Assembly: GCA_963803805.1 (NCBI GenBank) | Contig: CAWDOD010000011.1 | Span: forward strand, 480,001-544,000 | Length of the DNA stretch: 64,000 nt | Direction: 5' to 3' | DNA from: an uncultured cyanobacterium | Lineage (GTDB): Bacteria > Cyanobacteriota > Cyanobacteriia > Cyanobacteriales > CAWCAG01 | Shown here: piece after piece, positions 22,192 through 40,539 of the stretch | How the letters are laid out: each line of letters begins with the position of its first letter | Position numbering within the stretch: the first letter of the stretch is position 1 | Position numbers and translations under genes: made by a program | Notes under the pieces: generated by a model | What the model was told of the DNA's origin: nothing | What the model saw: only the letters and a program-made list of their open reading frames with translations | The model's database searches: none

Positions 22192-23088
22192 TTGTTATTG
22201 ATTATGAAAGCCATCTTGCTTTCTTTGGCTAAACCATTTAGATTTTCTTCCTTCTGGCTTGTGGCTATAGCTGCAATCTTAAACACTATTTATTTGATTG
22301 TAATTTGGAGAATCAAAGATACTTCTCACTTTGGTATGAGTCTTATTTTTGGTATTGCAGTTTGCTCTCTTCTTTGGGAAAAACGTCATCACTTCAAAAG
22401 AGAAACAACCGTTATTCCTGGTTTTTTCGGAGGATTACTGATTGCTTTAATCTTCTGGAGAAGTATCGCCATAATAAATATGAGCTTTCTACCTTCTTTC
22501 CCTCAATACCTTTTACCGCTTTTACCGCTACGACTGATACCTTTTATCACTTGTCTGGCAATTGTTTTACTTACTTCTGGTTTCAGAGGTTTGAAACAAT
22601 ACTGGCAAGAACTAATTATCTTTTTCACTTTGGGAATTAAAGTATTAATTTATCCTTTTGTAGATCCTTCTCCTATTGTTGCTAAGTTTTCTTCTTTACT
22701 CCTTATCTATTTAGGATTTGATGTATCAATCCAAGGAGAAAAAATAATTCTCCCGACAGGAGGTATAACAGTACTACAAGACTGCTCTGGCTTGGAAAGT
22801 ATGCTTTATCTTTTTGGCTTAGCTATAATCTTTCTCTTCATGTTTCCTTTGGCCAATTGGCGTAAAAGAATCCTGGTTTTAATAGCTGCTATCCTGTTAG
22901 GATTTGCTATTAACGGAGTCAGGGTTGCTTTCTTAGCTGCTTTAGTTGCTTCCCATCATCAAAAAGCTTTTACTTACTGGCATATAGAAGGTGGTTCTTT
23001 GATTTTTGGAGGGATTTCTGTATTAGCATTTGGCGTATTCTGTTTAGTTTTACTCCAGCAAGAAACCTTGGGAGAAGGTAATAGGTAA
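22192..23088 (+). CDS. crtA: Cyanoexosortase A (PEP-CTERM sorting enzyme)
   Basis: Multi-TM protein with exosortase catalytic motifs DCSG, INGVRV and YWH. The N-terminal SLLWEKRH pattern fits cyanoexosortase A. True start may be the ATG at 22204. Confidence 0.75.
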   Translation: MLLIMKAILLSLAKPFRFSSFWLVAIAAILNTIYLIVIWRIKDTSHFGMSLIFGIAVCSLLWEKRHHFKRETTVIPGFFGGLLIALIFWRSIAIINMSFLPSFPQYLLPLLPLRLIPFITCLAIVLLTSGFRGLKQYWQELIIFFTLGIKVLIYPFVDPSPIVAKFSSLLLIYLGFDVSIQGEKIILPTGGITVLQDCSGLESMLYLFGLAIIFLFMFPLANWRKRILVLIAAILLGFAINGVRVAFLAALVASHHQKAFTYWHIEGGSLIFGGISVLAFGVFCLVLLQQETLGEGNR

Positions 23089-28045: not shown

Positions 28046-31000
28046 ATGTTAAATCAGTCCCTTGAGCAGCGTTTTAGTTTTTCTGCTTGGAAAATACGCA
28101 GACTTACCCGTTTGCTTATTTTAGCAGTTTCAATTTTAGCTCTCAATATTCAAGTAATTACTTTAGCTAGTTCTTTATTTTTAAACAAAGTTGGCTCAGA
28201 AAAATTACCTTTATTTTTTATCTTAATTGGTTTAGTTTCTGTCCCCGCCTATGCTTTATTTTCTCCTTTAGTAGACCGTTATAGCCGTCCTCAACTTTTT
28301 CGCTATGTCCTTTTCATCGGCATAGTAGTCATTTTACTAATGCGCCTAGCAATTAATTCAGGTAGCTTAGTAATTTATTATCTCCTGTTCATCTTTGCCA
28401 GTTTTTCCTGGGATTCTCAAGTAAATATTCTTTGGCCTAGCTTACTTAATGATTATCTTACTTCCTTAGAATATAAACGCTACACTTCCTTAATTGGTAT
28501 GGCTCAAGCGGTAGGCATCCTACTAGGAGGTGCATTAGTTAGTGTTATTTCTGCCTATCTTCCGACTAGAAATATCCTCATTGCCCTGCCTTTAATGTAT
28601 GGGTTGGTTATTCTACAATTATTCCTTTTGGAAAGGTCAGAAAGGCGTTTAGAAAGCAATACCAAAGAAGAATCCGTAGGCATTTGGCAGACTTTGAAAA
28701 CTTTTCCTGAACAAGTTAAAAACTACCAAATTATTTTCTTTCTTGCTGCTAGTAGTTTTTTAGTGGTTATTTTAATTGTTATTGCTGAGTATGAATGTTT
28801 TAGTGTCTATTCCCAAACCTTCACCGATGACCAAGAATTAACTCGTTTCTTAGGTTTATTGAGGGTGGTTTATAGTGTTGTGCAACTCTTCGTCCTCTAC
28901 GGTTTCACCCAGCCTCTATTACAAAGATTGGGGGTAGGAACAATGAGTTTAGTTTATCCCATCACTACCTTAATTAGCTTCATTTCCTTGGGGTTAAACT
29001 TTTCTCTTCCTGCGGCGATCGCAACTAGTGTTAACAGCGAATCTTTAAATAAAAGTATTAACCTACCTGTTCATAACCTCAACTATAACGCCGTCCCCTA
29101 TCAAATAATTGGTAGAGTTAGGGCTTTTAGCGATGGCTTTCTCTATGCTTTAGGACAAATTTCTGCCGGAGTATTACTTTGGGCTGCCCATTCCTTCTTA
29201 ACCTTGGTACAAATTACTTGGTTAGGTATTGCCCTCAGCCTCCTGTTTTTCCTCCTGCGTTATCCCATGGGGAAAAAGTACTTTGAATCTTTAGAAGGAA
29301 TGCTTCGTTCTGGTTCTGTTAATCTAGATGATATTAGTGAAGGTTTAACGCAACTTCCCCCTCAATCAAGTTCTGTCATTAAAGAATTAATTACCAGCGA
29401 AGAACGTTATACAAAAATTAAAGGGTTGGAATTAGCCATAGGTTTAGGGCAACCTAGCCAATTCTTAGAAGATGTGGAAGAATTATTTCCTAATGCCCAT
29501 CCAGATGTGCGAGATGCTAGCGTTAAACTACTCAGCAGCAACCCCGACACAGAAACAATTAATCGTTGTCAAGAACTATTAAAAGCCCAAAATCATTCCT
29601 TAAAAGCATTAGGTTTAGAAGTCCTCATCGCCAGTCAACATCATCTTGATGAAGAACAAATACGCAGTTGCCTGAAAGATAATAGCCAAGAAATTCGTGC
29701 CTTAGCCTCCGTCGCCGCCACTCAAACTGAGGCGATCACCAATCCAGAAATTAAACAAACCTGTGCCAAATTATGGCAATCTGAATTAGATCAAACCACT
29801 GGAAAAGCCATCGTTAGGGTAGTTGCTTTTGGAGGTGGTAGAGAGTTAATTCATCCCCTCAAAGAAATTCTTTTACGGGGTAGTGGGGAGGTGATTAGGA
29901 AAGGATTAGAAGCTTTAGCCAACATCGCCCGTCCCCAGGATGAAGAATTGGCACAAATAGCCGTAACCCAATTAAACCATCCTGATCCCACCGTTAGAGC
30001 CACCGCCTTTGAAGTCTTAAGAATAGCCCGTAGTGAAGAAATGTTGAACTATGTGGTTAATGGCTTAGAAGATCATGACTCCCAAGTGCGACAAAAAGCG
30101 GCTATGGCACTGGCGGCATATGGTGAACAGGGTTTATCCTTAGCTAAGGAAAGTCTCCTCTCTGCTAACCAAAATCTCGTAGAAGCGGCGATCGCCGCCA
30201 TAGGTCAAATTCGTATTAGAAAGGCTAGCGACATCCTCTACGACTATCTCAGCCCCGACTTCCAAGAAATTTCCCATACCCGTCAGTGGCAACAAAAAAT
30301 CCCCCTCCATACCCCAAGCTGGCAACCATTAGCCATTGCCATCGCCGACTATCACCAGCGCTTAATTCAACGGGTACTCTACGTCCTTTCCTGCTTAGGA
30401 CACGCCCGCACCGTTAATACTGTCAAACGCCTACTTTATAGCACCGATAAAAGGGAATTAGCCAACGCTATAGAAACCTTAGCCTCTTTAAGAGATCGAC
30501 GTTTTGTACTCCCTTTAATGCCTATTTTAGAGGGTTTAGCCAACGAAGAAGCCCCAGGAACACCTATTTCAGCCAACTCTTTTTGGATGCGGACAAAAGG
30601 TTATAAGCTACTCTTAGAAGCCCTCGAAGCCAAAGATCGCTGGATCAGGATCGGGGCTTTAATTGCCTTAGCGGGGCTTTCTTCTGCTTTAAGCAAAGAT
30701 CCAGATCCCTTAGTTAAAGCAGTTGCTAAAGAGATTTTTCGTCCTTTAGATGAACAACCAGCTTCCCTGAACTTTTTTATGAAACGCTTACTTTTACTAA
30801 AAAAGGTTGCACTTTTTAAAAACCTCTCTTTAGATGAGCTATTATTAATCGACCGTGCCTTAGAACAAGAGCAATTCTTAGCCGGAGAAACCATCTTCAC
30901 CGAAGGCAGTTGGGGAGAACATTTTTATATTATTGCTGAAGGGAAAGTACGTATTGTTAAAAAGGTGGAAGAAGAAGAAAGGGATCTGACTTTTTTAATT

Positions 31001-31243
31001 CCCGGACAACATTTTGGTGAAGTTGCTTTATTTGATGATGCCCCCCGGTGGAATGGTGCGATCGCAGTGGAAGATTGTACTTTATTTAAGTTAGAAAAAA
31101 GTAGTTTTATTAGCTTAATTACCCAACGTCCTCACATTGTTTTAGAAATCTGTCGCTTTTTCAGCCAGCGTTTACGAGAAACCGACAAATACTTTCCGGT
31201 TAAGTTATTGGCTGCGTCGGGAGAGTTATTGGGTAATCGCTAA
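28046..31243 (+). CDS. MFS/NTT-like transporter fused to HEAT repeats and a cNMP-binding domain
   Basis: About 12 TM in the N-terminal 410 aa (FLNKVGSEKLP), HEAT-like repeats (LEDHDSQVRQKAAMAL), C-terminal cNMP domain (FGEVALFDDAPR). Confidence 0.8.
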   Translation: MLNQSLEQRFSFSAWKIRRLTRLLILAVSILALNIQVITLASSLFLNKVGSEKLPLFFILIGLVSVPAYALFSPLVDRYSRPQLFRYVLFIGIVVILLMRLAINSGSLVIYYLLFIFASFSWDSQVNILWPSLLNDYLTSLEYKRYTSLIGMAQAVGILLGGALVSVISAYLPTRNILIALPLMYGLVILQLFLLERSERRLESNTKEESVGIWQTLKTFPEQVKNYQIIFFLAASSFLVVILIVIAEYECFSVYSQTFTDDQELTRFLGLLRVVYSVVQLFVLYGFTQPLLQRLGVGTMSLVYPITTLISFISLGLNFSLPAAIATSVNSESLNKSINLPVHNLNYNAVPYQIIGRVRAFSDGFLYALGQISAGVLLWAAHSFLTLVQITWLGIALSLLFFLLRYPMGKKYFESLEGMLRSGSVNLDDISEGLTQLPPQSSSVIKELITSEERYTKIKGLELAIGLGQPSQFLEDVEELFPNAHPDVRDASVKLLSSNPDTETINRCQELLKAQNHSLKALGLEVLIASQHHLDEEQIRSCLKDNSQEIRALASVAATQTEAITNPEIKQTCAKLWQSELDQTTGKAIVRVVAFGGGRELIHPLKEILLRGSGEVIRKGLEALANIARPQDEELAQIAVTQLNHPDPTVRATAFEVLRIARSEEMLNYVVNGLEDHDSQVRQKAAMALAAYGEQGLSLAKESLLSANQNLVEAAIAAIGQIRIRKASDILYDYLSPDFQEISHTRQWQQKIPLHTPSWQPLAIAIADYHQRLIQRVLYVLSCLGHARTVNTVKRLLYSTDKRELANAIETLASLRDRRFVLPLMPILEGLANEEAPGTPISANSFWMRTKGYKLLLEALEAKDRWIRIGALIALAGLSSALSKDPDPLVKAVAKEIFRPLDEQPASLNFFMKRLLLLKKVALFKNLSLDELLLIDRALEQEQFLAGETIFTEGSWGEHFYIIAEGKVRIVKKVEEEERDLTFLIPGQHFGEVALFDDAPRWNGAIAVEDCTLFKLEKSSFISLITQRPHIVLEICRFFSQRLRETDKYFPVKLLAASGELLGNR

Positions 31244-31547
31244 TTGCTAGTTGCTAGTAACATATATAAATCGCTGTCGGTGTCAATATAGAAATGGCGC
31301 GATCGCAAAGACAATCAGGCAGCTATTAGTAAGTTAGGGGAATATAGGCAACTATCTCATTTAGTGAGAACTTACATTAATTTTTGTACTAAGTGGGTTG
31401 ATGGCTTATTTGATTAGAACTTACGCAGTAAAATGACAAATAAAGAGTTGAAGCTATCGGGTTCGTGTGATAGTCAATAGTCAACAGTTTACTGCTTATA
31501 GGTTTCAGTATTCAAAGATATCCCAAGCTTATTGCGTAGTGCTATAC

Positions 31548-34026
31548 ATGAAGTTCCAGAAACAGCCTTTAACTACTAAAGTCGCTACCTCCTTCCTGTT
31601 TCTTTCTCTTCTCACAGTAGGAGTTGTAGGAGGAGTAGCTCATATTAGGGCTAGGGAAGCTCTCAAACAAGCAGCTTTTGACCGACTTAATGTTACTGCA
31701 AGATTAAAAGAAAAAGAAATTGCCCGTTGGTTTGAAAATCAGCAACGGGACTTTCTTTTAACGACTCAATTTCCTGATGTACAAGAGAATCTACAAATAC
31801 TGACTAATCCCACCGCTTCCAAAACTCAACAGCAAGATGCTTATGGCTTACTTTCAAAATACCTTGGTAAAGTAATCACTTTTAAACCTAACTTCAGAAA
31901 AATTTCCCTCCTTAACCGCAGTAACCAAATTATTCTCTCCACCAAAAAAGCGAATGAGGGGAATTATGAAATTGGTACAAACTTAACTTATATTGAGGAA
32001 GTTGAGTCAGGAGATACCTTTGCACCCATCTTTTATGTTTCCCCCATGACAGGCAAACCCGCAGTCACCTTAGCTACACCTTTAAAGAATCAAGCAGGGG
32101 ATCGCCAAGGGATGATTTTAACAGAGCTTAACCTAGAACAAATTGATGGCATTGTCAGAGAAAGTATGGGCTTGGGGGAAAGCGGAGAGACATATTTAGT
32201 TGGTTCACTCATAACTAAAAATGTTTTTATTTCTAAAGCAAATACTCCTAATCCTAACCAACAAAACTCTGAAGGTATAACCAGCCAAGGTATTGATCGG
32301 GCAATGAGTGGCGAAAGTGGTACTCAGTTGTATCGCAATTATGCAGGAGTCCCGGTAATTGGGGTTTATCGTTGGTTGAATGATCAAGATATTGCTTTGT
32401 TGGTGGAAATGGAACAAAAGGAGGCTTTTACTCCAGCTAGAGAGCTTGCTGTCACTATTGTTTTAGTAGGGCTAGCCGCAGCAGCTATTTTGTTGGTAGG
32501 AGTGTATTGGTTATCTCGCCAGTTAACCCTGTCTCGGCAGCAACTGGAAATTAAAGCCCAAGAAGCAGATACTGCAAACCGCGCTAAGAGCGAGTTTTTA
32601 GCGAATATGAGTCATGAATTGCGTACTCCCCTTAATGCTATTCTTGGTTTTGCTCAACTGCTAGATCGTGATACGACTTTAAGTTCTCAACAAAAGGATT
32701 TTTTAGCTACCATTAACCGTAGCGGTGAACATCTCCTCGATTTAATTAATGATGTGCTGCAAATGTCGAAAATTGAGGCGGGTAAAACAGTTTTAGCCCC
32801 AGAAGTTTTTGACTTGCATAGTCTTTTGCAAACTCTCCATTCCCTGTTCCAAGTTAGGGCAGCAGCAAAAGGACTAACCCTTAATTTTCATCTTGATCCT
32901 GACTTACCCCAACATATTCTTACCGATGAAGGCAAACTGCGCCAAGTTTTAATCAACCTGTTAAGCAATGGGATTAAATTTACCCCAAAAGGAAGCGTAA
33001 CCTTAACAGCAAACTGCAAACAATGGCAAAAATCTCTCCCAGCCTATCCCCTTACTTCCTCACCTCCTCAGCCTAAAATCTTTCGTCTGTGTTTCGGTGT
33101 TGAAGATAGTGGCATCGGCATTGCCGAAGCAGAATTAGACCAGCTTTTTCGTCCTTTTGTACAAACAGCTAGCGGTGTCAAAACTCAAGGTGGTACAGGC
33201 TTAGGACTAACAATTAGCCGTAAATTCATTCAATTAATGGGGGGGGGATATTCAAGTTCAGAGTAGTTTGGGAAAGGGTTCTAACTTTCAATTTACCATC
33301 AAAGTTACTATTGCCCAACCAAAGGTAGTTGCAGAATCTTTAACCGAAAGGAGAGTGGTGAAAATTGCTCCTCACCAACCAACTTACCGCTTGTTAGTTG
33401 CTGATGACAAAGAAGAAAATCGTAACCTTTTAGTACAACTGCTGCAAACCGTTGGTTTCCAAACTCAAACAGCTACTAATGGGGCTGAGGCGATCGCCCA
33501 ATGGCAAACCTGGCAACCTGATTTAATTTGGATGGATATGCGGATGCCTGTTGTAGATGGTTATGAAGCAACCAGGAAAATTAAGGCCCAAGCAACTTCT
33601 TCTCAACAAAAAGCTAAAATTATTGCCCTCACTGCTGCGGTTTTTGCAGAACAACAGGAGCATATTTTAAAGGCGGGTTGCGATGATATTGTTCGCAAAC
33701 CTTTCCGGGAAAAGATTATTTTTGAAAAAATAGCTCAACACATAGGAGTTAAATATATCTATGAAGGGGAATCTCAGTCTCCCTTGCCCGAAGCAACCCC
33801 AACAGCCTTAAACTCTGAAACCTTAAAAATAATGCCCCCAGAATGGCAAGAAAAACTCTATCAAGCCGCCGTTGAGGTAGATGGAGAGGCGATTTCCCAG
33901 TTAATAGAGCAAATTCCGTCCCATAGGGAGTCTTTGGTTACAGGACTAGCACAGTTAAATCGCAGTTATGATTTTGATGGGATTATCGAATTGTTGCAAG
34001 GTATGACGAAAAAAATTGACAATTGA
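31548..34026 (+). pseudogene. Cache-HisKA-HATPase-REC hybrid kinase interrupted by a +1 frameshift in a G9 run (may be an assembly error)
   Basis: ANMSHELRTPLNAILG and GTGLGL, then ATG-G8-ATA at 33237-33250. A G8 run would read LMGGDIQVQSSLGKGSNFQF and join the REC ORF 33268-34026. Likely start is the ATG at 31548. Confidence 0.85.
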
Positions 34027-34248: not shown

Positions 34249-35004
34249 ATGAATTTTCCGGTTTATTTACAGCTTGGTACTTGGCAAATTCATCCTCATC
34301 CTATCTTTGAATTATTGGGTTATGTAGTTGCTTTCCGCTTATTATTGAGACGTAATTTGCGTCGAGGAGATACTATTTCTTTTAGTCAACGTAGTTCTGT
34401 CGTTGTGGGGGGAATGTTAGGTGCTTTATTGGGAGCAAAGTTATTAGTTTTAATACAACATATTTATTTAATAGAACAAAGCTGGGCAAAATTACTATTA
34501 TTATTGGTACAAGGAAAAACTATTGTTGGTGCATTGCTCGGAGGATTGATTGGGGTTGAGTTAACTAAAAAGATCATAGGTGTAAAACGTTCAACAGGAG
34601 ATGTTTTTGTTTATCCTTTAATTGTTGGTATGGCTATTGGTAGGATTGGTTGCTTTTTAACAGGATTAAGCGATCGCACCTATGGTATAGCCACAAGTTT
34701 ACCTTGGGGAGTTGATTTTGGCGACGGTATTCTTCGACATCCTACACAAATTTATGAAATCATTTTTCTAATTGCCTTGCTGATTAGTTTGAGAATTTGC
34801 CAAAAGTATTTAACAGTTGAGGGGGATTTGTTTAAGTGGTTTATGACAATTTATTTAAGCTTCCGTTTCTTAATTGATTTCCTCAAACCAGATTTTCATC
34901 TCCTATTAGGTTTAAGTGCAGTTCAAATAGCTTGTTTAGCAGGATTAATTTATTATCTAATTAAGCAACTTTCTTCGCAAAAAGCTGAAGAAAAAAACTA
35001 TTGA
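34249..35004 (+). CDS. Prolipoprotein diacylglyceryl transferase (Lgt) family protein, divergent paralog
   Basis: About 7 TM. GRIGCFLTG, LPWGVDF, RHPTQIYE and RFLIDFLK match Lgt motifs. The canonical HGG motif is absent (GKTIVGALLGG at that position). Confidence 0.85.
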   Translation: MNFPVYLQLGTWQIHPHPIFELLGYVVAFRLLLRRNLRRGDTISFSQRSSVVVGGMLGALLGAKLLVLIQHIYLIEQSWAKLLLLLVQGKTIVGALLGGLIGVELTKKIIGVKRSTGDVFVYPLIVGMAIGRIGCFLTGLSDRTYGIATSLPWGVDFGDGILRHPTQIYEIIFLIALLISLRICQKYLTVEGDLFKWFMTIYLSFRFLIDFLKPDFHLLLGLSAVQIACLAGLIYYLIKQLSSQKAEEKNY

Positions 35005-35093
35005 TAATAGAGAGATAGCCAATCTAAAACTCGGCTTCTCGAAAATACTTGGAAAATGGGCTACCTTTACAAATTATAATTGATAACTGAAAA

Positions 35094-36503
35094 ATGCCTA
35101 CTCGTAACTACCTATTCCATTCCTTAACCAATAGTGTTTGTTCCCAATGTTTAACCAAAGTTGAAGCAAAGATTATTTTCCGCAACGATAAAGTTTATTT
35201 ACTTAAAAACTGCCTCCATCATGGTAGAGAAGAAGTTTTAATAGCTGATGATGTTGAGTATTACAAAAAATCCCTAGAATTCATTAAACCAGGAGACTTA
35301 CCTCTCAAGTTTAATACTCCAATTAAATATGGTTGTCCTTATGATTGTGGTTTGTGTCCTGATCATGAACAACATAGTTGTTTGACGTTAATTGAAATTA
35401 GCGATCGCTGTAATCTTTCTTGTCCTATTTGTTATGCCGATTCTGGTCAAGCAGAATTTTCTTCTCTTTCTCAACAGAGGAGAAAACATCGTAGTTTAAC
35501 TGAAATAAATCGGATGTTGGAAGTAATTGTAGCTAACGAAGGAGAACCACAAGTTGTCCAACTTAGTGGCGGTGAACCAACTATTCATCCTGAATTTTTC
35601 GCCATTATGGATTTGGTTAAAACTAAACCCATTCAACATTTAATGATTAATACCAATGGCATAAAAATTGCTCAAGATCGAGAATTTTGCCAGAGATTGA
35701 GTCAATATATGCCGGGGATTGAAATTTATTTACAGTTTGATAGCTTTGAATCAGAATCCTTAAAAGAGTTACGGGGAGTAGATTTAAGAACTATTCGAGA
35801 ACAAGCGATCGCCCACCTTAATGAGTTTAATATTTCCACTAATTTAGTTGTTACTTTGAAAAAAGGACTTAACGACAAAGAAATAGGTAAAATTATTGAA
35901 TATGCGGTAGGGCAAAAAGCAGTACGTGGAGTCACATTTCAACCTATTCAAGCAGCAGGAAGATTAGAAGGATTTGCTCCAGCCAAAGATAGATACACCC
36001 TAACAGAAGTTAGGCGTTCAATTCTAGAGCAAAGTAACTATTTCAAACCAGAAGATATTTTACCTATTCCTTGCCATCCAGACTGTCTAGCAATGGCCTA
36101 TGGCTTAAAAGTAAAGGGTGAGATTATACCTCTAACAAGTTTGTTGCAACCCCAAGAATATGTTGACATTGCCCCGAATAGCATCCTTTATGAACAAGAC
36201 GAAGATTTAAAAAAGAAAATCTTCGACCTATTTTCCACTCGCCATTCTCCTCAATCTGCCACCACTTCCTTAAAACAATTACTTTGTTGTTTACCAATGC
36301 TTCCTGTTCCCCAAGGTATCACCTACGAAAATATTTTTCGTATTACTATTGTCCAATTTCTAGACCGTTATAACTTTGATGTTCGTTCGGTAAAACGCTC
36401 TTGCATTCACATAGTTCATCCTGATGGGAGGATTATTCCTTTTGATACTTTTAATATGTTTTATCGCCCCGGTATTAAAATAGAGAACAGAACAATAAGT
36501 TAA
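35094..36503 (+). CDS. Radical SAM enzyme, tetraether synthase (Tes/GDGT-MAS, MJ0619)-like
   Basis: CSQC...KNCLHHG, GCPYDCGLCPDHEQH, radical SAM CNLSCPIC, QLSGGEPT, NTNG, YLQFD, RGVTFQP, PCHPDC, SCIHIVHPDGRIIPF. Confidence 0.85.
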   Translation: MPTRNYLFHSLTNSVCSQCLTKVEAKIIFRNDKVYLLKNCLHHGREEVLIADDVEYYKKSLEFIKPGDLPLKFNTPIKYGCPYDCGLCPDHEQHSCLTLIEISDRCNLSCPICYADSGQAEFSSLSQQRRKHRSLTEINRMLEVIVANEGEPQVVQLSGGEPTIHPEFFAIMDLVKTKPIQHLMINTNGIKIAQDREFCQRLSQYMPGIEIYLQFDSFESESLKELRGVDLRTIREQAIAHLNEFNISTNLVVTLKKGLNDKEIGKIIEYAVGQKAVRGVTFQPIQAAGRLEGFAPAKDRYTLTEVRRSILEQSNYFKPEDILPIPCHPDCLAMAYGLKVKGEIIPLTSLLQPQEYVDIAPNSILYEQDEDLKKKIFDLFSTRHSPQSATTSLKQLLCCLPMLPVPQGITYENIFRITIVQFLDRYNFDVRSVKRSCIHIVHPDGRIIPFDTFNMFYRPGIKIENRTIS

Positions 36504-36542
36504 AGAGAGTGTTTTAATCTTTGGTATCTCAAATCAAACATT

Positions 36543-36857
36543 ATGTCTCAAAATAATGAAAGCTTCAAAATATTCCTCGGCGTTGTTATTTTATTTGCCT
36601 TTCATATTGCTGCTATTGTTGCTTATTGTCTGATTGCTTTATTGCTAAATACTGGTTTATATGATTCTAGTGTTGCTATCTTTGCCTTTCTAATTTTTGG
36701 TATTGGCATATCCCAAATTATATATGTAATCCCAATAGTAATAATTTTAAGATCCCGTAGAGAGTTTGCTTTAATGAAAGGAGTAATTATTGGTGCTGTC
36801 ATTACCGCCCTCTTAAACGGTGGTTGCTGGTTATTATTGACTCTCCCCTCTACATAA
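36543..36857 (+). CDS. Small 3-TM membrane protein with a C-terminal LLNGGC motif
   Basis: 104 aa with three hydrophobic segments and a basic RSRR loop before the third. Starts 39 nt after the radical SAM gene. Confidence 0.8.
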   Translation: MSQNNESFKIFLGVVILFAFHIAAIVAYCLIALLLNTGLYDSSVAIFAFLIFGIGISQIIYVIPIVIILRSRREFALMKGVIIGAVITALLNGGCWLLLTLPST

Positions 36858-37051: not shown

Positions 37052-37984
37052 ATGAAACTATACCAAAACCCCTCTCAATGGCAAGTAGCAACAATCCTTT
37101 GTATTGGCGTATTTGCTATTTCCACAGCCGCCATCTTTATTCGTTTAGCCATCGAAACTGCTCAAATAAAAGGAATCGGTTTTAGCCTTTTTATTGCCGC
37201 TTCTCGCCTCACCTTAGCTTCTTTAGTCCTTATTCCCACTATCCCTTTTTTAGAGCAAAAAACCATTCCCAAAAAGGGATTTTATTATGCCACTGCTGCG
37301 GGAATTTGCTTGGCTTTACACTTTGCTACTTGGATTACTTCTCTCTCCTTTACCTCCATAGCAGCCTCCACAACCTTAGTAACCACAAATCCGATTTGGG
37401 TAGCCTTATTTTCTTGGCTTTGGTATCAAGTCAAACCCCACAAATTAACCATAATTGGTATTGGCATCGCTTTACTAGGAAGCCTGATTATTGTCGGTGG
37501 TGATACTGGGGAAACAGAGGTTAGTACAAATCCTTTATTAGGTAACTTCCTGGCTTTAATAGGGGCTTGGATGGCTAGTCTTTACTTACTTTTAGCCCGT
37601 GAAGCCCAAAACGAAAGTTTTAGCACTGGAAGTTATGTAACCATCGTTTATAGTACAGCCGCAGTAGTACTTTTGCCTTTGCCTTTACTATTCGGAATAA
37701 GCTACTTTGGTTATCCGAGCGACGTGTATCTCTACATTTTACTAATGGCTATATTATCCCAGGTAGTAGGTCACACTAGCTTGAATTGGGCAGTACGCTG
37801 GCTTTCTCCTACCTTAGTAACCTTAGCAATTCTCCTCGAACCCATCGGCTCAAGTTTAATGGGATTTGCTATTTTTGGTGAAATTCCTCATAATCTAGTC
37901 CTGTTAGGGGCTGGAGTCGTACTAATGGGTGTGGCTTTAGCCATTTTTGGTGTCACAGAAGAAGAGCAAAAAAATTATCCTTAA
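37052..37984 (+). CDS. DMT/EamA family transporter
   Basis: About 10 TM in two repeats; LALHFATWITSL..TSIA, GHTSLNWA, LLEPIGS. Confidence 0.9.
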   Translation: MKLYQNPSQWQVATILCIGVFAISTAAIFIRLAIETAQIKGIGFSLFIAASRLTLASLVLIPTIPFLEQKTIPKKGFYYATAAGICLALHFATWITSLSFTSIAASTTLVTTNPIWVALFSWLWYQVKPHKLTIIGIGIALLGSLIIVGGDTGETEVSTNPLLGNFLALIGAWMASLYLLLAREAQNESFSTGSYVTIVYSTAAVVLLPLPLLFGISYFGYPSDVYLYILLMAILSQVVGHTSLNWAVRWLSPTLVTLAILLEPIGSSLMGFAIFGEIPHNLVLLGAGVVLMGVALAIFGVTEEEQKNYP

Positions 37985-38055
37985 CTAGAAGAATTTGGTT
38001 AAAGTCCCACATCGGGTAATAATTAAAAAGATTGGTTGGTAAAAGGAATCATTGC

Positions 38056-38985
38056 ATGGTAACGACGGACGGACGACCTGCCCCCCCAAAAACGCCCTCA
38101 GTCTTTGATGTTAAGGGTTATTTACAAGAGCAAAAGCAGATTGTTAATCAAGCTTTAGACTGCTCTGTTCCCGTGACTGAGCCGATAAAAATTTATGAAG
38201 CAATGCGCTATTCCCTGTTAGCCGGGGGGAAGCGCCTGCGTCCTATTCTTTGTCTGGCAACTTGTAACATGATGGGAGGGACATCAGAAATGGCCATGCC
38301 CACTGCTTGCGCCTTAGAAATGATCCATACCATGTCCTTAATCCACGATGATCTTCCTGCCATGGATGACGACGATTATCGCCGGGGTAAGTTGACAAAT
38401 CACAAAGTTTATGGTGAAGATATCGCTATTTTAGCAGGGGACGGCTTACTATCCTATGCTTTTGAATATATTGCTACTCAAACTAAAGGTGTAGAAGCAT
38501 CCCAACTTCTCCAAGTCGTTGCTCATTTAGCCCGTGCTGTGGGTGCAGGGGGTTTAGTTGGTGGGCAAGTTATTGATTTAGAGTCAGAAGGAAAGTCAGA
38601 TATTTCCTTAGATACTCTCAACTATATTCATACCCATAAAACAGGTGCTTTATTAGAAGCTTGTGTAATTTGCGGAGCTACTTTAGCGAAGGCATCTTCC
38701 CAAGATACACAAAGACTTTCTAACTACGCTCGTAATATTGGCTTAGCATTTCAGATTATTGATGATATCTTAGACATCACAGCAACTAAAGAGGAACTAG
38801 GCAAAACTGCTGGCAAGGATCTTCAAGCTCAAAAAGCAACTTATCCTAGCTTGTGGGGATTAGAAGAGTCGAGGAAACAAGCCCAAAAATTGGTAGATAA
38901 GGCTATTGCCCAATTAGAACCCTATGGGAAAAAAGCTTTACCTTTACAAGCGATCGCTCAATTTATTACTGCTCGTAAAAACTAA
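38056..38985 (+). CDS. crtE: Geranylgeranyl diphosphate synthase
   Basis: [52 protein letters not shown]. The ATG at 38056 is preferred over the TTG at 38032. Confidence 0.93.
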
Positions 38986-39033
38986 GTTTTCCCTTTTTAT
39001 TTTGCTTAAATTGCCGATTTTAAATGAGATACC

Positions 39034-39489
39034 ATGCAAGATTTTAACAACATCTTAGACAATAATGTCCTACTGATGGCTGTCCTTGCTTGTCTGAGCG
39101 CTCAAGGATTGAAATTGGTGATTGAGTGGATTAGACATCGCAAGGTAGATATTAAGTATTTGGTTAGTACAGGGGGAATGCCTAGCGCTCACTCAGCCTT
39201 AGTTGGAGCCTTAGCCACAGGAGTGGGGCAAACTATGGGCTGGTCTAGTCCTGATTTTGCGATCGCTTGTCTTTTTGCTGTGATTGTTATGTATGATGCC
39301 GCCGGAGTACGCCAAGCAGCCGGAAAACAAGCTCGTATTCTTAATCAAATTATTGATGAGTTATTTCAGGAAGATAAAGAATTTGATGAAGAAAGGTTAA
39401 AAGAATTATTAGGTCATACTCCTTTCCAAGTTTTGGTAGGTTTGGCTTTAGGAATTGGTATTTCTCTGATGTTAGGAAAAATTTGGTAA
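39034..39489 (+). CDS. Divergent PAP2 family protein (DUF212)
   Basis: TGGMPSAHSA, VMYDAAGVRQAAG, LKELLGHTP. Usual neighbour of crtE in cyanobacteria. Confidence 0.9.
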   Translation: MQDFNNILDNNVLLMAVLACLSAQGLKLVIEWIRHRKVDIKYLVSTGGMPSAHSALVGALATGVGQTMGWSSPDFAIACLFAVIVMYDAAGVRQAAGKQARILNQIIDELFQEDKEFDEERLKELLGHTPFQVLVGLALGIGISLMLGKIW

Positions 39490-39552: not shown

Positions 39553-40539
39553 ATGAGATTCATTAGTCCTAAAACCGACTTTGCCTTCAAGAAAATATTT
39601 AGCTCCGATGGGAGTCAAGATATTCTCATCTCTTTCCTCAATGCCACCATCTACTCTGGGGATTCTGTCATTGAAGACTTGAAAATTATTGACCCTTATA
39701 ACCCTAGTGACACAGTTGATTTAAAAGATAGCTATCTTGATGTTAAAGCAGTATTGAAAGATGGCACAAGCGTTATTATTGAGATGCAGGTCTGGAATGT
39801 AGAGGCTTTTAAAAAACGAGTAGTTTATAACCTTTGCAAAACTTACGGTAATCAACTTAAATCAGGACAAGGATATTCTGACCTTAGTCCAGTTATTGCT
39901 TTAACTATCACTGACTTTACTTTATTTTCCTTAAGCCAAAAAGTAATTACTCGTTTCTATTTCCAAGAAGAAGAAGAAAAAATTGCTTATCAAGAGGGAG
40001 AGTTAAAACTAGTATTTATAGAATTGCCTAAGTTTGACAAAAAACTAGAAAATTTAGAAAGCGTTACAGATAAATGGATTTATTTTATTAAAGAAGCACC
40101 AAATTTAGAAGTGATTCCAGAAAAAATGGGGGAAATACCCCAGATTAAAAAAGCCTTGAACATAGCAAATCAAGCGAGCTTAAGCGGAGAAGAATTAGAG
40201 AAGTTACATAAACAGGAAATGTTTATTGCTGACCGTCAGGGGGCTATGAGTTTAGCGAAAAAACAAGGTCGAGAAGAAGGTCGAGAAGAAGGCAGAGAAG
40301 AGGGCAGAGAAGAGGGCAGAGAAGAGGGCAGAGAAGAAGGCAGAGAAGAAGGTTTACTTGAGGGAGAAAGAAACCTATTACTACGACAAATTCAACATCG
40401 TTTTGGAGAATTATCCCCAGAGGTAATCGCTTCTTTTGAAGCACTAGATGCTCAAGGATTAGGGAATTTAGGAGAAGCAATCTGGGAGTTTAGAACTAAT
40501 AATGATTTAGTTCAATGGTTGCAAAACTACTCTCTCTAA
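39553..40539 (+). CDS. Rpn family PD-(D/E)xK nuclease (putative transposase) with a DUF4351-like C-terminus
   Basis: FISPKTDFAFKKIF, LDVKA...IIEMQ, FIELPKF, DKWIYF, GREE repeats, LLRQIQHRFG. Confidence 0.88.
   Translation: MRFISPKTDFAFKKIFSSDGSQDILISFLNATIYSGDSVIEDLKIIDPYNPSDTVDLKDSYLDVKAVLKDGTSVIIEMQVWNVEAFKKRVVYNLCKTYGNQLKSGQGYSDLSPVIALTITDFTLFSLSQKVITRFYFQEEEEKIAYQEGELKLVFIELPKFDKKLENLESVTDKWIYFIKEAPNLEVIPEKMGEIPQIKKALNIANQASLSGEELEKLHKQEMFIADRQGAMSLAKKQGREEGREEGREEGREEGREEGREEGREEGLLEGERNLLLRQIQHRFGELSPEVIASFEALDAQGLGNLGEAIWEFRTNNDLVQWLQNYSL
40267..40350 (+). repeat. 12-bp coding tandem repeat x7 (GREE)
   Basis: GGTCGAGAAGAA x2, GGCAGAGAAGAG x3, GGCAGAGAAGAA x2. Confidence 0.9.

Follow-up and report, generated by a model that had tools for sequence, protein, structure and literature searches.

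A conserved bacterial gene cassette that joins a divergent Lgt paralogue and a Tes-like radical SAM enzyme to small, cysteine-bearing membrane proteins

Three adjacent genes in a cyanobacterial genome raise the question of why a relative of the prolipoprotein diacylglyceryl transferase Lgt, a relative of the archaeal lipid enzyme Tes and a small membrane protein are encoded side by side. The genes lie in a 64,000-nucleotide stretch from an uncultured cyanobacterium (contig CAWDOD010000011.1 of assembly GCA_963803805.1, positions 480,001 to 544,000). This whole stretch is called the window, and coordinates are positions within it. All three genes are on the + strand. The first open reading frame (ORF 1; 34249..35004; 251 amino acids) encodes a divergent Lgt-family protein with a Pfam LGT domain (PF01790). 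ORF 2 (35094..36503; 469 amino acids) encodes a radical S-adenosylmethionine (SAM) protein with the fold of GDGT-MAS, also called Tes, and matches Radical_SAM (PF04055) and the HMPTM/MJ0619 zinc ribbon (PF23545) in Pfam. ORF 3 (36543..36857; 104 amino acids) encodes a small, three-helix membrane protein without a named family, referred to here as the W-type partner. ORF 1 and ORF 2 are separated by 89 nucleotides (35005-35093) and ORF 2 and ORF 3 by 39 nucleotides (36504-36542). The ORF list gives the same coordinates as a first-pass annotation of this DNA, which had described three co-oriented genes with these gaps. The start codons of all three ORFs fit the conserved N-termini in alignments of their relatives. 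No terminator-like site was found between the three genes in a scan for promoters and terminators, which performed at chance level (2 sites, with 2.0 expected); the sole hairpin, at 36200-36225, is within ORF 2. The G+C content of the three-gene region is 0.34-0.36, slightly below that of its flanks (about 0.40-0.42), and the nearest relatives of all three proteins are cyanobacterial. The trio is best explained as a single instance of a conserved membrane cassette, in which two enzymes are constant and the small membrane-protein partner can be exchanged.

Relatives of the ORF 2 protein were sought in one genome per species. At least 557 were confirmed, and 80 loci were kept, which span six phyla or more. 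The window proteins served as phmmer queries for the neighbouring genes. In 74 of the 80 loci (74 of the 77 that are assessable), an Lgt paralogue is encoded upstream of the radical SAM gene and in the same orientation, and in 60 of these 74 no more than 200 nucleotides separate the pair. Three of the loci in which the Lgt paralogue is not seen (L020, L030 and L034) have less than 50 bp of upstream sequence each. A small partner gene from any of four families is present in 72 of the 80 loci, and two further loci (L003 and L080) end at the radical SAM stop codon, so that no partner is visible. Because 74 of the 80 loci, in several phyla, have the gene order of the window, the arrangement is far beyond chance, and the cassette is almost certainly real. 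Synteny in other genomes had been put forward in the first-pass annotation as a check on its proposal, and these counts bear it out. The same annotation had treated a lipid-transfer enzyme, a lipid-coupling enzyme and a substrate as one unit. The two-enzyme core of that unit stands, but the partner is interchangeable and is missing within 6 kb in six flanked loci.

The identity of the radical SAM proteins to the window protein is highest in the Cyanobacteria (71-79%), where Cylindrospermum and Crinalium are among the carriers of the cassette. It is 60-67% in the Paenibacillaceae, Bacillaceae and their relatives, 62-66% in the Planctomycetota, 59-62% in two Pseudomonadota and a Kapaibacterium, and 55-59% in the Acidobacteriaceae. 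One record titled as an actinomycetotal metagenome-assembled genome (L022) contains a cassette that is 78% identical to that of the window and falls within the cyanobacterial clade of the tree; this contig is probably a mis-binned cyanobacterial sequence.

When the 2101 ORFs of 90 or more amino acids in the 80 loci are clustered all against all, no further specifically conserved neighbour emerges. The clusters consist only of the two enzymes, opposite-strand shadow ORFs and promiscuous families such as kinases and ABC ATPases. In this clustering, no lsp, lnt, protease, transporter or recognition-element gene is conserved near the cassette. Downstream of the cassette in the window (37052-39489) are genes for an EamA transporter, the geranylgeranyl diphosphate synthase CrtE and a DUF212 protein. 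These were considered as a link between the cassette and isoprenoids and were rejected, having no relatives in any of the 80 loci.

The cassette is widespread and uncharacterised. Literature searches on Lgt or diacylglyceryl with radical SAM, on Tes homologues, on glycerol dialkyl glycerol tetraethers of the branched type (brGDGTs) and on TrsS returned no paper on the cassette; these searches excluded supplements such as the list of bacterial Tes homologues of PMC8941075. This agrees with the earlier statement that the system was not known to be characterised. The Pfam and NCBIfam collections hold no model specific to the Lgt paralogue or to the partner families.

ORF 1 belongs to a distinct paralogous subfamily of Lgt and is very probably not the housekeeping Lgt. 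The protein matches Pfam LGT with an E value of 7.9e-28 and 97.8 bits (cut-off 24.9). It reaches neither of the NCBIfam lgt equivalogs, with 65.7 bits against NF000778 (cut-off 334) and 51.8 bits against TIGR00544 (cut-off 118.9). Its AlphaFold2 model has a mean predicted local distance difference test (pLDDT) score of 89.6, and the sole significant match to the model in the PDB by Foldseek is the Escherichia coli Lgt 5AZB (E 3.4e-7, TMq 0.62, 22% identity). The first-pass label of a divergent Lgt is therefore apt, with an Lgt fold that scores far below every NCBIfam lgt cut-off. In Synechocystis, a single Lgt is reported, sll1187, which is 48% identical to the E. coli enzyme (PMC8038367). Because ORF 1 is only 22% identical to the same enzyme, it is not an orthologue of sll1187. 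In public records, the closest relatives of the paralogue (P0242-P0360) are named plainly 'prolipoprotein diacylglyceryl transferase' and only some are named 'family protein'. The plain name probably over-annotates a distinct subfamily.

Across 71 sequences of the Lgt paralogue, 52 positions are near-invariant. In the alignment with 5AZB, E. coli R143, Y235, R239, E202, P197 and R246 correspond to R132, Y202, R206, E170, P165 and K213 of the paralogue, all of which are conserved. The equivalent of the Lgt signature motif starts with R132-I-G134-C135 (codons at 34642..34653, + strand), where R143 is kept and N146 has become an invariant Cys. Among 35 sequences, R132, G134 and C135 never vary; in the set of 71, each is at least 95% conserved. 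From the same alignment and the conservation tables, three E. coli residues have invariant replacements in the paralogue family: Y26 by H17, H103 by L97 and N146 by C135. The equivalent of E. coli E151 is ambiguous in the alignment, with the invariant D142 as the candidate, and the GGL portion of the HGGL motif is kept.

In E. coli Lgt, R143 and R239 are described as lining the diacylglycerol site and as intolerant to any mutation, and the residues that are kept in the paralogue either bind the diacylglycerol moiety or tolerate no mutation (PMC4728403). The same source reports that mutation of Y26 or H103 inactivates the enzyme, proposes the HGGL region as the lipobox-binding site and places the active site facing the periplasm (PMC4728403). 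N146 is a conserved network residue. We read this pattern as a donor-lipid side that appears conserved and an acceptor side that appears altered. Overall, the paralogue resembles E. coli Lgt (5AZB/5AZC) in its fold, its Pfam domain, its diacylglycerol-site residues and the GGL of the HGGL motif. It differs from E. coli Lgt in its shortened periplasmic head domain, in having no linked lsp or lnt, and in always being paired with a radical SAM enzyme, in loci that were found through the radical SAM protein.

The radical SAM enzyme is most closely related, among solved structures, to GDGT-MAS (7TOL), with a phmmer E value of 1.5e-61 and a profile E value of 1.8e-83 over residues 11-458. In the Foldseek search, 7TOL and 7TOM match the ORF 2 model with an E value of 2e-33 and a TMq of 0.78-0.79 over 499 columns; the next match has a TMq of 0.38. 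The GDGT-MAS fold thus extends over the whole length of the protein, as the earlier description of a tetraether-synthase-like radical SAM enzyme implied. In the family, 160 of the 469 positions are at least 97% conserved (80 sequences). The radical SAM [4Fe-4S] motif C106-x3-C110-x2-C113 (codons at 35409..35432, + strand) aligns to the CX3CX2C of GDGT-MAS and is invariant in 80 of 80 sequences. The rubredoxin-type motif C16-x2-C19-x20-C40-x2-H43 and the ligands of the N-terminal cluster (C81, C85, C88 and H91) are likewise invariant in all 80. All three sets of motifs match motifs described for GDGT-MAS (PMC9433317). That enzyme is reported to bind phospholipids, including archaetidylglycerol and E. 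coli lipids, with the end of the lipid tail 3.5 Å from the 5'-carbon of 5'-deoxyadenosine (PMC9433317).

ORF 2 is not a member of a named NCBIfam family. Its best-scoring model is TrsS (NF045646), which it matches over nearly its full length with 309.7 bits and an E value of 2.5e-92 (cut-off 490), and it scores 275.4 bits against Tes (NF045702; cut-off 450). ORF 2 is below both cut-offs and belongs to an unnamed third subfamily. In the literature searched, TrsS came up only as a table row (PMC13188914). It also differs from the TrsS (seleno)protein in that it is readable without a selenocysteine codon. With Tes/GDGT-MAS (MJ0619; 7TOL, 7TOM), it shares the full-length, four-domain fold and the metal ligands of the N-terminal and radical SAM clusters. 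It differs from Tes in its rewired C-terminal Cys set, in its score below the Tes cut-off, in its hosts, which are largely aerobic bacteria with ester lipids and not archaea, and in its fixed position beside an Lgt paralogue. Mss of Thermotoga and Thermoanaerobacter is another radical SAM enzyme that joins lipid tails and represents a proven bacterial route to membrane-spanning lipids (PMC13159169, PMC13459092, PMC13274423). It is described as only remotely related to Tes (PMC13159169), and it is set apart from ORF 2 by this description only. In the portions of text available from PMC13159169 and PMC13459092, no link between Lgt and Mss is reported. An Lgt neighbour of Tes homologues is likewise unmentioned in the available portions of PMC8941075, PMC13159169, PMC13459092 and PMC13274423.

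The third protein has no match to a Pfam or NCBIfam family. Its hydropathy profile has three hydrophobic segments, and its N-terminus is predicted to be inside and its C-terminus outside. The loop RSRREFALMK, which precedes helix 3, is basic and by the positive-inside rule would therefore be cytoplasmic. A hidden Markov model of the W-type family matches an ORF in 49 of the 80 loci. In the 48 where this ORF is separable from the radical SAM gene, it always lies downstream of that gene. In the remaining W-type locus (L020), a masked run makes the radical SAM and partner genes inseparable. The apparent fusion of the two genes in this locus was rejected as an artefact of an ORF that crosses the masked stretch. 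Tandem pairs occur in the W-type family, with two copies in 9 of the 49 loci. The family has 1712 representatives at an E value of 1e-3 or lower in a library of 1.84 billion proteins, and its public names are only 'hypothetical protein' or evident mis-hits. An Atlas search with the partner returned unnamed cyanobacterial clusters and, as a lead only, one cluster auto-named 'Lipoprotein family protein' (score 0.94).

The candidate modification site of the W-type partner is Cys95 (codon at 36825..36827, + strand), which is nine residues from the C-terminus within the motif N-[GAS]-[GAS]-C-[WFY]. Cys95, Q58 and P64 are each invariant in 35 of 35 aligned sequences from the loci. Among 261 database relatives, the Cys is present in 258, Q58 and P64 in all 261, and N92, at position -3 relative to the Cys, in 254. 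Position -2 is Gly in 182 of the 261 and position -1 is Gly, Ala or Ser in 241. In these relatives, the Cys is followed by a median of nine further residues. Within the loci, two W-type ORFs lack the Cys: the L033 protein and the second of the two copies in L072.

The remaining partners belong to three other families. In 13 loci from Paenibacillus and Saccharibacillus, the partner is a B-box zinc finger protein with one C-terminal helix, encoded upstream of the Lgt paralogue. Its Cys is present in 13 of 13 sequences, 6-9 residues from the end, in the motif ...L-[TA]-[IL]-C-[GA].... The B-box zinc finger of this Paenibacillus type is the only Pfam name among the partner types (27.5 bits, cut-off 24.1). 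In eight loci from the Acidobacteriaceae, one to three two-helix proteins are encoded in tandem between the two enzymes, and their first helix ends in G-[LA]-C-[GF], with the Cys present in 16 of 16 proteins. In two loci from the Planctomycetota, the partner is a multi-helix protein with a zinc ribbon and a Cys near its C-terminus, and its gene also lies between the two enzymes.

The four families are unrelated to one another, and in each a near-invariant Cys lies near the outer end of an in-to-out helix. The proteins of the three larger families have a hydrophobic helix with the Cys 15-22 residues into it, and what precedes this helix is either a basic stretch or a zinc finger in the cytoplasm. 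By the positive-inside rule, the Cys would be on the outer-leaflet side, as is the lipobox Cys of a lipoprotein. Basic residues, then a hydrophobic helix that runs from inside to outside and has a Cys at its outer end, would also match the geometry of a lipoprotein signal peptide. The putative acceptor differs from that of Lgt in that it belongs to a small polytopic protein, in which it is a C-terminal or internal helix, and shows no sign of being cleaved. We consider the partner Cys to be probably the functional site.

In a quick tree of the radical SAM proteins with Shimodaira-Hasegawa-like approximate likelihood ratio test (SH-aLRT) support, the 12 rows of B-box loci form a group (SH-aLRT 100) that falls inside the W-type Paenibacillaceae. 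This nesting suggests that the partner was swapped while the enzymes stayed orthologous. Since relatedness by itself would make such labels cluster, the nesting is supporting evidence only.

Several other small ORFs lie within these loci. In Chamaesiphon, a DUF4870 protein with a helix that ends in ...SITCG is encoded downstream of the radical SAM gene (L028:7707-8102). In Parabeggiatoa, a 99-amino-acid membrane protein that ends in ...FPTCLVIGKI is encoded in the same position (L055:1867-2166). These two may be a fifth and a sixth partner type. In three of the eight acidobacterial loci, an ORF of 182-189 amino acids with a canonical-looking lipoprotein signal (...LACGACFLPP...) lies between the two enzymes (L012:5420-5989, L017:5359-5907 and L018:1501-2067). 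It has a weak match to the ABC_trans_aux lipoproteins (E 0.006) and may be a further substrate.

The reading of the cassette that we prefer is that the Lgt paralogue S-lipidates the partner Cys and that the radical SAM enzyme modifies the tail ends of the lipid. We hold this reading tentatively, a little short of even confidence. In such a pathway, the Lgt paralogue would bind a phosphoglycerolipid, most likely phosphatidylglycerol, at an active site in the outer leaflet, and would move the diacylglyceryl unit onto the thiol of Cys95 to form a thioether. The altered acceptor-side residues (H103 to L, Y26 to H and N146 to C) would suit a non-canonical, uncleaved, intramembrane acceptor instead of a signal-peptide lipobox. 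The cytoplasmic Tes-like enzyme would accommodate a lipid tail in a hydrophobic tunnel, take a hydrogen from the last carbon of the tail and then couple or functionalise that carbon. Since the radical SAM enzyme would be cytoplasmic and the Cys on the outer side, modification of the lipid before its transfer is favoured. The radical SAM enzyme would then act first, on an inner-leaflet phospholipid, to give a macrocyclic or membrane-spanning lipid, and the Lgt paralogue would fix one end of this lipid to the partner Cys. The reverse order is the alternative.

The separate parts of this pathway differ in how probable they are. Lipidation of the partner Cys by the Lgt paralogue is evenly balanced between true and false. 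Tail-to-tail C-C coupling as the radical SAM step is doubtful. The fullest form of the proposal is a new class of protein-lipid modification, in which an uncleaved membrane protein is tethered through a near-C-terminal Cys thioether to a macrocyclic or membrane-spanning lipid, with tail ends that are joined or sulfur-functionalised, in largely aerobic bacteria from the Cyanobacteria to the Paenibacillaceae and the Acidobacteriota. In this form, the proposal is unlikely.

A number of observations weigh against S-lipidation coupled to tail modification. On the enzyme side, the replacement of Y26, H103 and N146 makes it possible, judging from the alignment, that transferase activity has been lost or changed. 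In three loci (L007, L024 and L072), there is no Lgt paralogue despite at least 5.8 kb of upstream sequence, and six loci with at least 1.8 kb of relevant flank contain none of the four partner families (L002, L007, L009, L028, L055 and L059). On the acceptor side, Cys95 has neither a canonical lipobox nor an N-terminal signal peptide. The lipobox is given as [LVI][ASTVI][GAS]C at the end of a signal peptide (PMC8038367, PMC12462473), and Cys95 is preceded by N-G-G, of which only position -1 fits. The B-box and acidobacterial types have Leu or Ile at position -1. The first-pass annotation had described a lipobox-like Cys after a membrane helix and had the Lgt paralogue lipidating Cys95. The Cys exists and is near-invariant, but it is internal to helix 3 near the outer end of that helix; lipidation gains substantial comparative support from the near-invariant Cys and the kept lipid-binding residues, but must contend with an internal motif that departs from the canonical one. 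Placement of the radical SAM enzyme in the cytoplasm and of the Cys towards the outer leaflet limits which step could come first.

Further points against the proposed pathway concern the C-terminal part of ORF 2. The ORF 2 model has a mean pLDDT of 76.5, and residues 356-403, including C398 and C399, are below 50. The GDGT-MAS residues Met439 and Tyr459 are replaced by V420 and I440, and Cys438 and Cys470 by I419 and D451. The family has new invariant Cys at positions 96, 327, 398 and 399. The invariant C327, C398, C399 and C437 could form a cluster, in which only C437 aligns to a GDGT-MAS Cys. In GDGT-MAS, the C-terminal domain is described as holding a cluster whose sulfur forms a C-S intermediate with the substrate (PMC9433317). 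Since the region of this cluster differs in ORF 2, the radical step may lead to something other than C-C coupling. The first-pass annotation had the enzyme cross-linking or otherwise modifying the acyl chains, or making the lipid that is transferred; with the C-terminal cluster site rebuilt, tail-to-tail C-C coupling is not to be assumed. Met439 and Tyr459 are reported to be completely conserved in 1000 archaeal homologues, and the M439A and Y459F/L variants stay active (PMC9433317). Because these variants stay active, the replacement of the two residues bears on family membership and not on capability.

Structure prediction of the Lgt paralogue in complex with the partner gives a score of 0.58, with 0.00 for the best of three controls. 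The runs share at least 93% of their contacts, and the pLDDT of the partner is at least 76. In calibration, 116 of the 157 solved complexes attained the mark, as did 2 of the 215 mismatched pairs, and scores of 0.60 or lower include only 18 of the 157 solved complexes, plus both passing mismatches. The complex prediction thus offers the paralogue-partner pairing weak support, which also counts against the proposed pathway.

The explanation that survives best beside S-lipidation is a pathway that acts on lipids only. The two enzymes would remodel phospholipids, either to macrocyclic or membrane-spanning forms or by moving diacylglyceryl to a non-protein acceptor, and the small proteins would be scaffolds, anchors or regulators with a structural or redox Cys. 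The constancy of the two-enzyme core fits this explanation, as does the absence of the partner from six flanked loci. Mean column identity is 72% and 50% for the enzymes and 27% for the partner, and glycerolipids are substrates of both enzyme families. Bacterial Tes homologues have also been proposed as makers of membrane-spanning lipids (PMC8941075). However, the four unrelated partner families have in common only a near-invariant Cys at one membrane depth, which fits a reactive site better than a scaffold. The tandem partner copies and the partner swap within one enzyme clade are substrate-like behaviour, and a scaffold role leaves the small residues that flank the Cys unexplained. A lipid-only pathway is possible and rather unlikely.

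The next explanation is maturation of the kind found in ribosomally synthesised and post-translationally modified peptides. The radical SAM enzyme would modify the small protein by a thioether or other crosslink at the Cys, and the Lgt-fold protein would lipidate it, export it or give immunity. The small genes are indeed tandem, variable and next to a radical SAM gene, and the weaker Foldseek matches of ORF 2 include the peptide maturases SkfB and SuiB (E about 1e-9). These matches span only the generic radical SAM core (TMq 0.37-0.38), whereas the match to GDGT-MAS is full-length (0.78). The conserved neighbourhood lacks a protease, transporter or recognition-element gene, and the partners are integral membrane proteins in which the helices are best conserved and no leader/core pair is present. 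Peptide maturation is improbable.

Less probable still is that the radical SAM enzyme is a synthase of brGDGTs or iso-diabolic acid, that is, a bacterial counterpart of Tes that makes membrane-spanning lipids, with the Lgt-like gene as a bystander. ORF 2 has the Tes fold, and its family occurs in the Acidobacteriaceae. The same orthologous enzyme and Lgt paralogue are also found in the Cyanobacteria, Paenibacillaceae, Bacillaceae and Planctomycetota, from which, to our knowledge, production of brGDGT-type lipids has not been reported. The two archaea-invariant residues Met439 and Tyr459 are V420 and I440 in ORF 2. Bacterial Tes homologues were noted and proposed as brGDGT synthases by Zeng et al., citing an Edaphobacter aggregans homologue at 32% identity (PMC8941075), but among 14 acidobacterial producers of iso-diabolic acid, Tes homologues are reported in only 3 (PMC13159169). 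A brGDGT synthase with a bystander is thus very improbable.

The public names of the closest relatives, and the lack of a second LGT-domain ORF in a domain scan of the ORFs of the 64-kb window, might suggest an ordinary housekeeping lgt that lies by chance beside a small hypothetical gene and a radical SAM gene to which it is unrelated. This explanation can be dismissed almost entirely, given the linkage kept in 74 of 80 loci across phyla, the NCBIfam equivalog scores far under their cut-offs, the replacement of Y26, H103 and N146, and the identity to E. coli Lgt, which is 22% for ORF 1 and is reported as 48% for sll1187.

If S-lipidation of the partner with modification of the lipid tails is what the cassette does, a widespread modification pathway has been missed, made up of an Lgt paralogue, a Tes-like enzyme and a Cys-bearing partner, with radical SAM relatives in at least 557 species genomes. 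Protein S-lipidation would then extend to internal, uncleaved sites. Lgt has so far been treated as a single-purpose lipoprotein enzyme, and Tes as a lipid enzyme of archaea whose bacterial relatives are orphans. The cassette is a bacterial, genetically tractable entry to Tes-type radical chemistry. Acidobacterial Tes homologues are used as candidate brGDGT synthases (PMC8941075), and the acidobacterial members found here are all within the cassette. If the cassette carries out a new modification, many of the bacterial Tes homologues that are counted as markers of brGDGT producers would do something else.

Outside the cassette, the window is dense in signalling genes, which include GGDEF/EAL proteins, adenylate cyclases and kinases. 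A hybrid histidine kinase gene upstream of the cassette (31467-34026, + strand) is split by a frameshift at about 33255-33270, beside a run of Gly codons. Frame 3 ends with '...LMGGGYSSSE' at a stop codon, and frame 1 carries on the ATPase domain ('...GGDIQVQSSLGKGSNFQFTIKV') and then the receiver domain. The frameshift may reflect an error in sequencing, or else the gene is a pseudogene or has a slippage site. An unusual 1065-amino-acid fusion of a major facilitator superfamily transporter domain, HEAT repeats and a C-terminal cyclic-nucleotide-binding domain is encoded at 28046-31243 (+ strand). A PD-(D/E)XK transposase-family/DUF4351 protein with about seven tandem 'GREE' repeats is encoded at 39553-40539 (+ strand), and an exosortase gene is present at 22192-23088.

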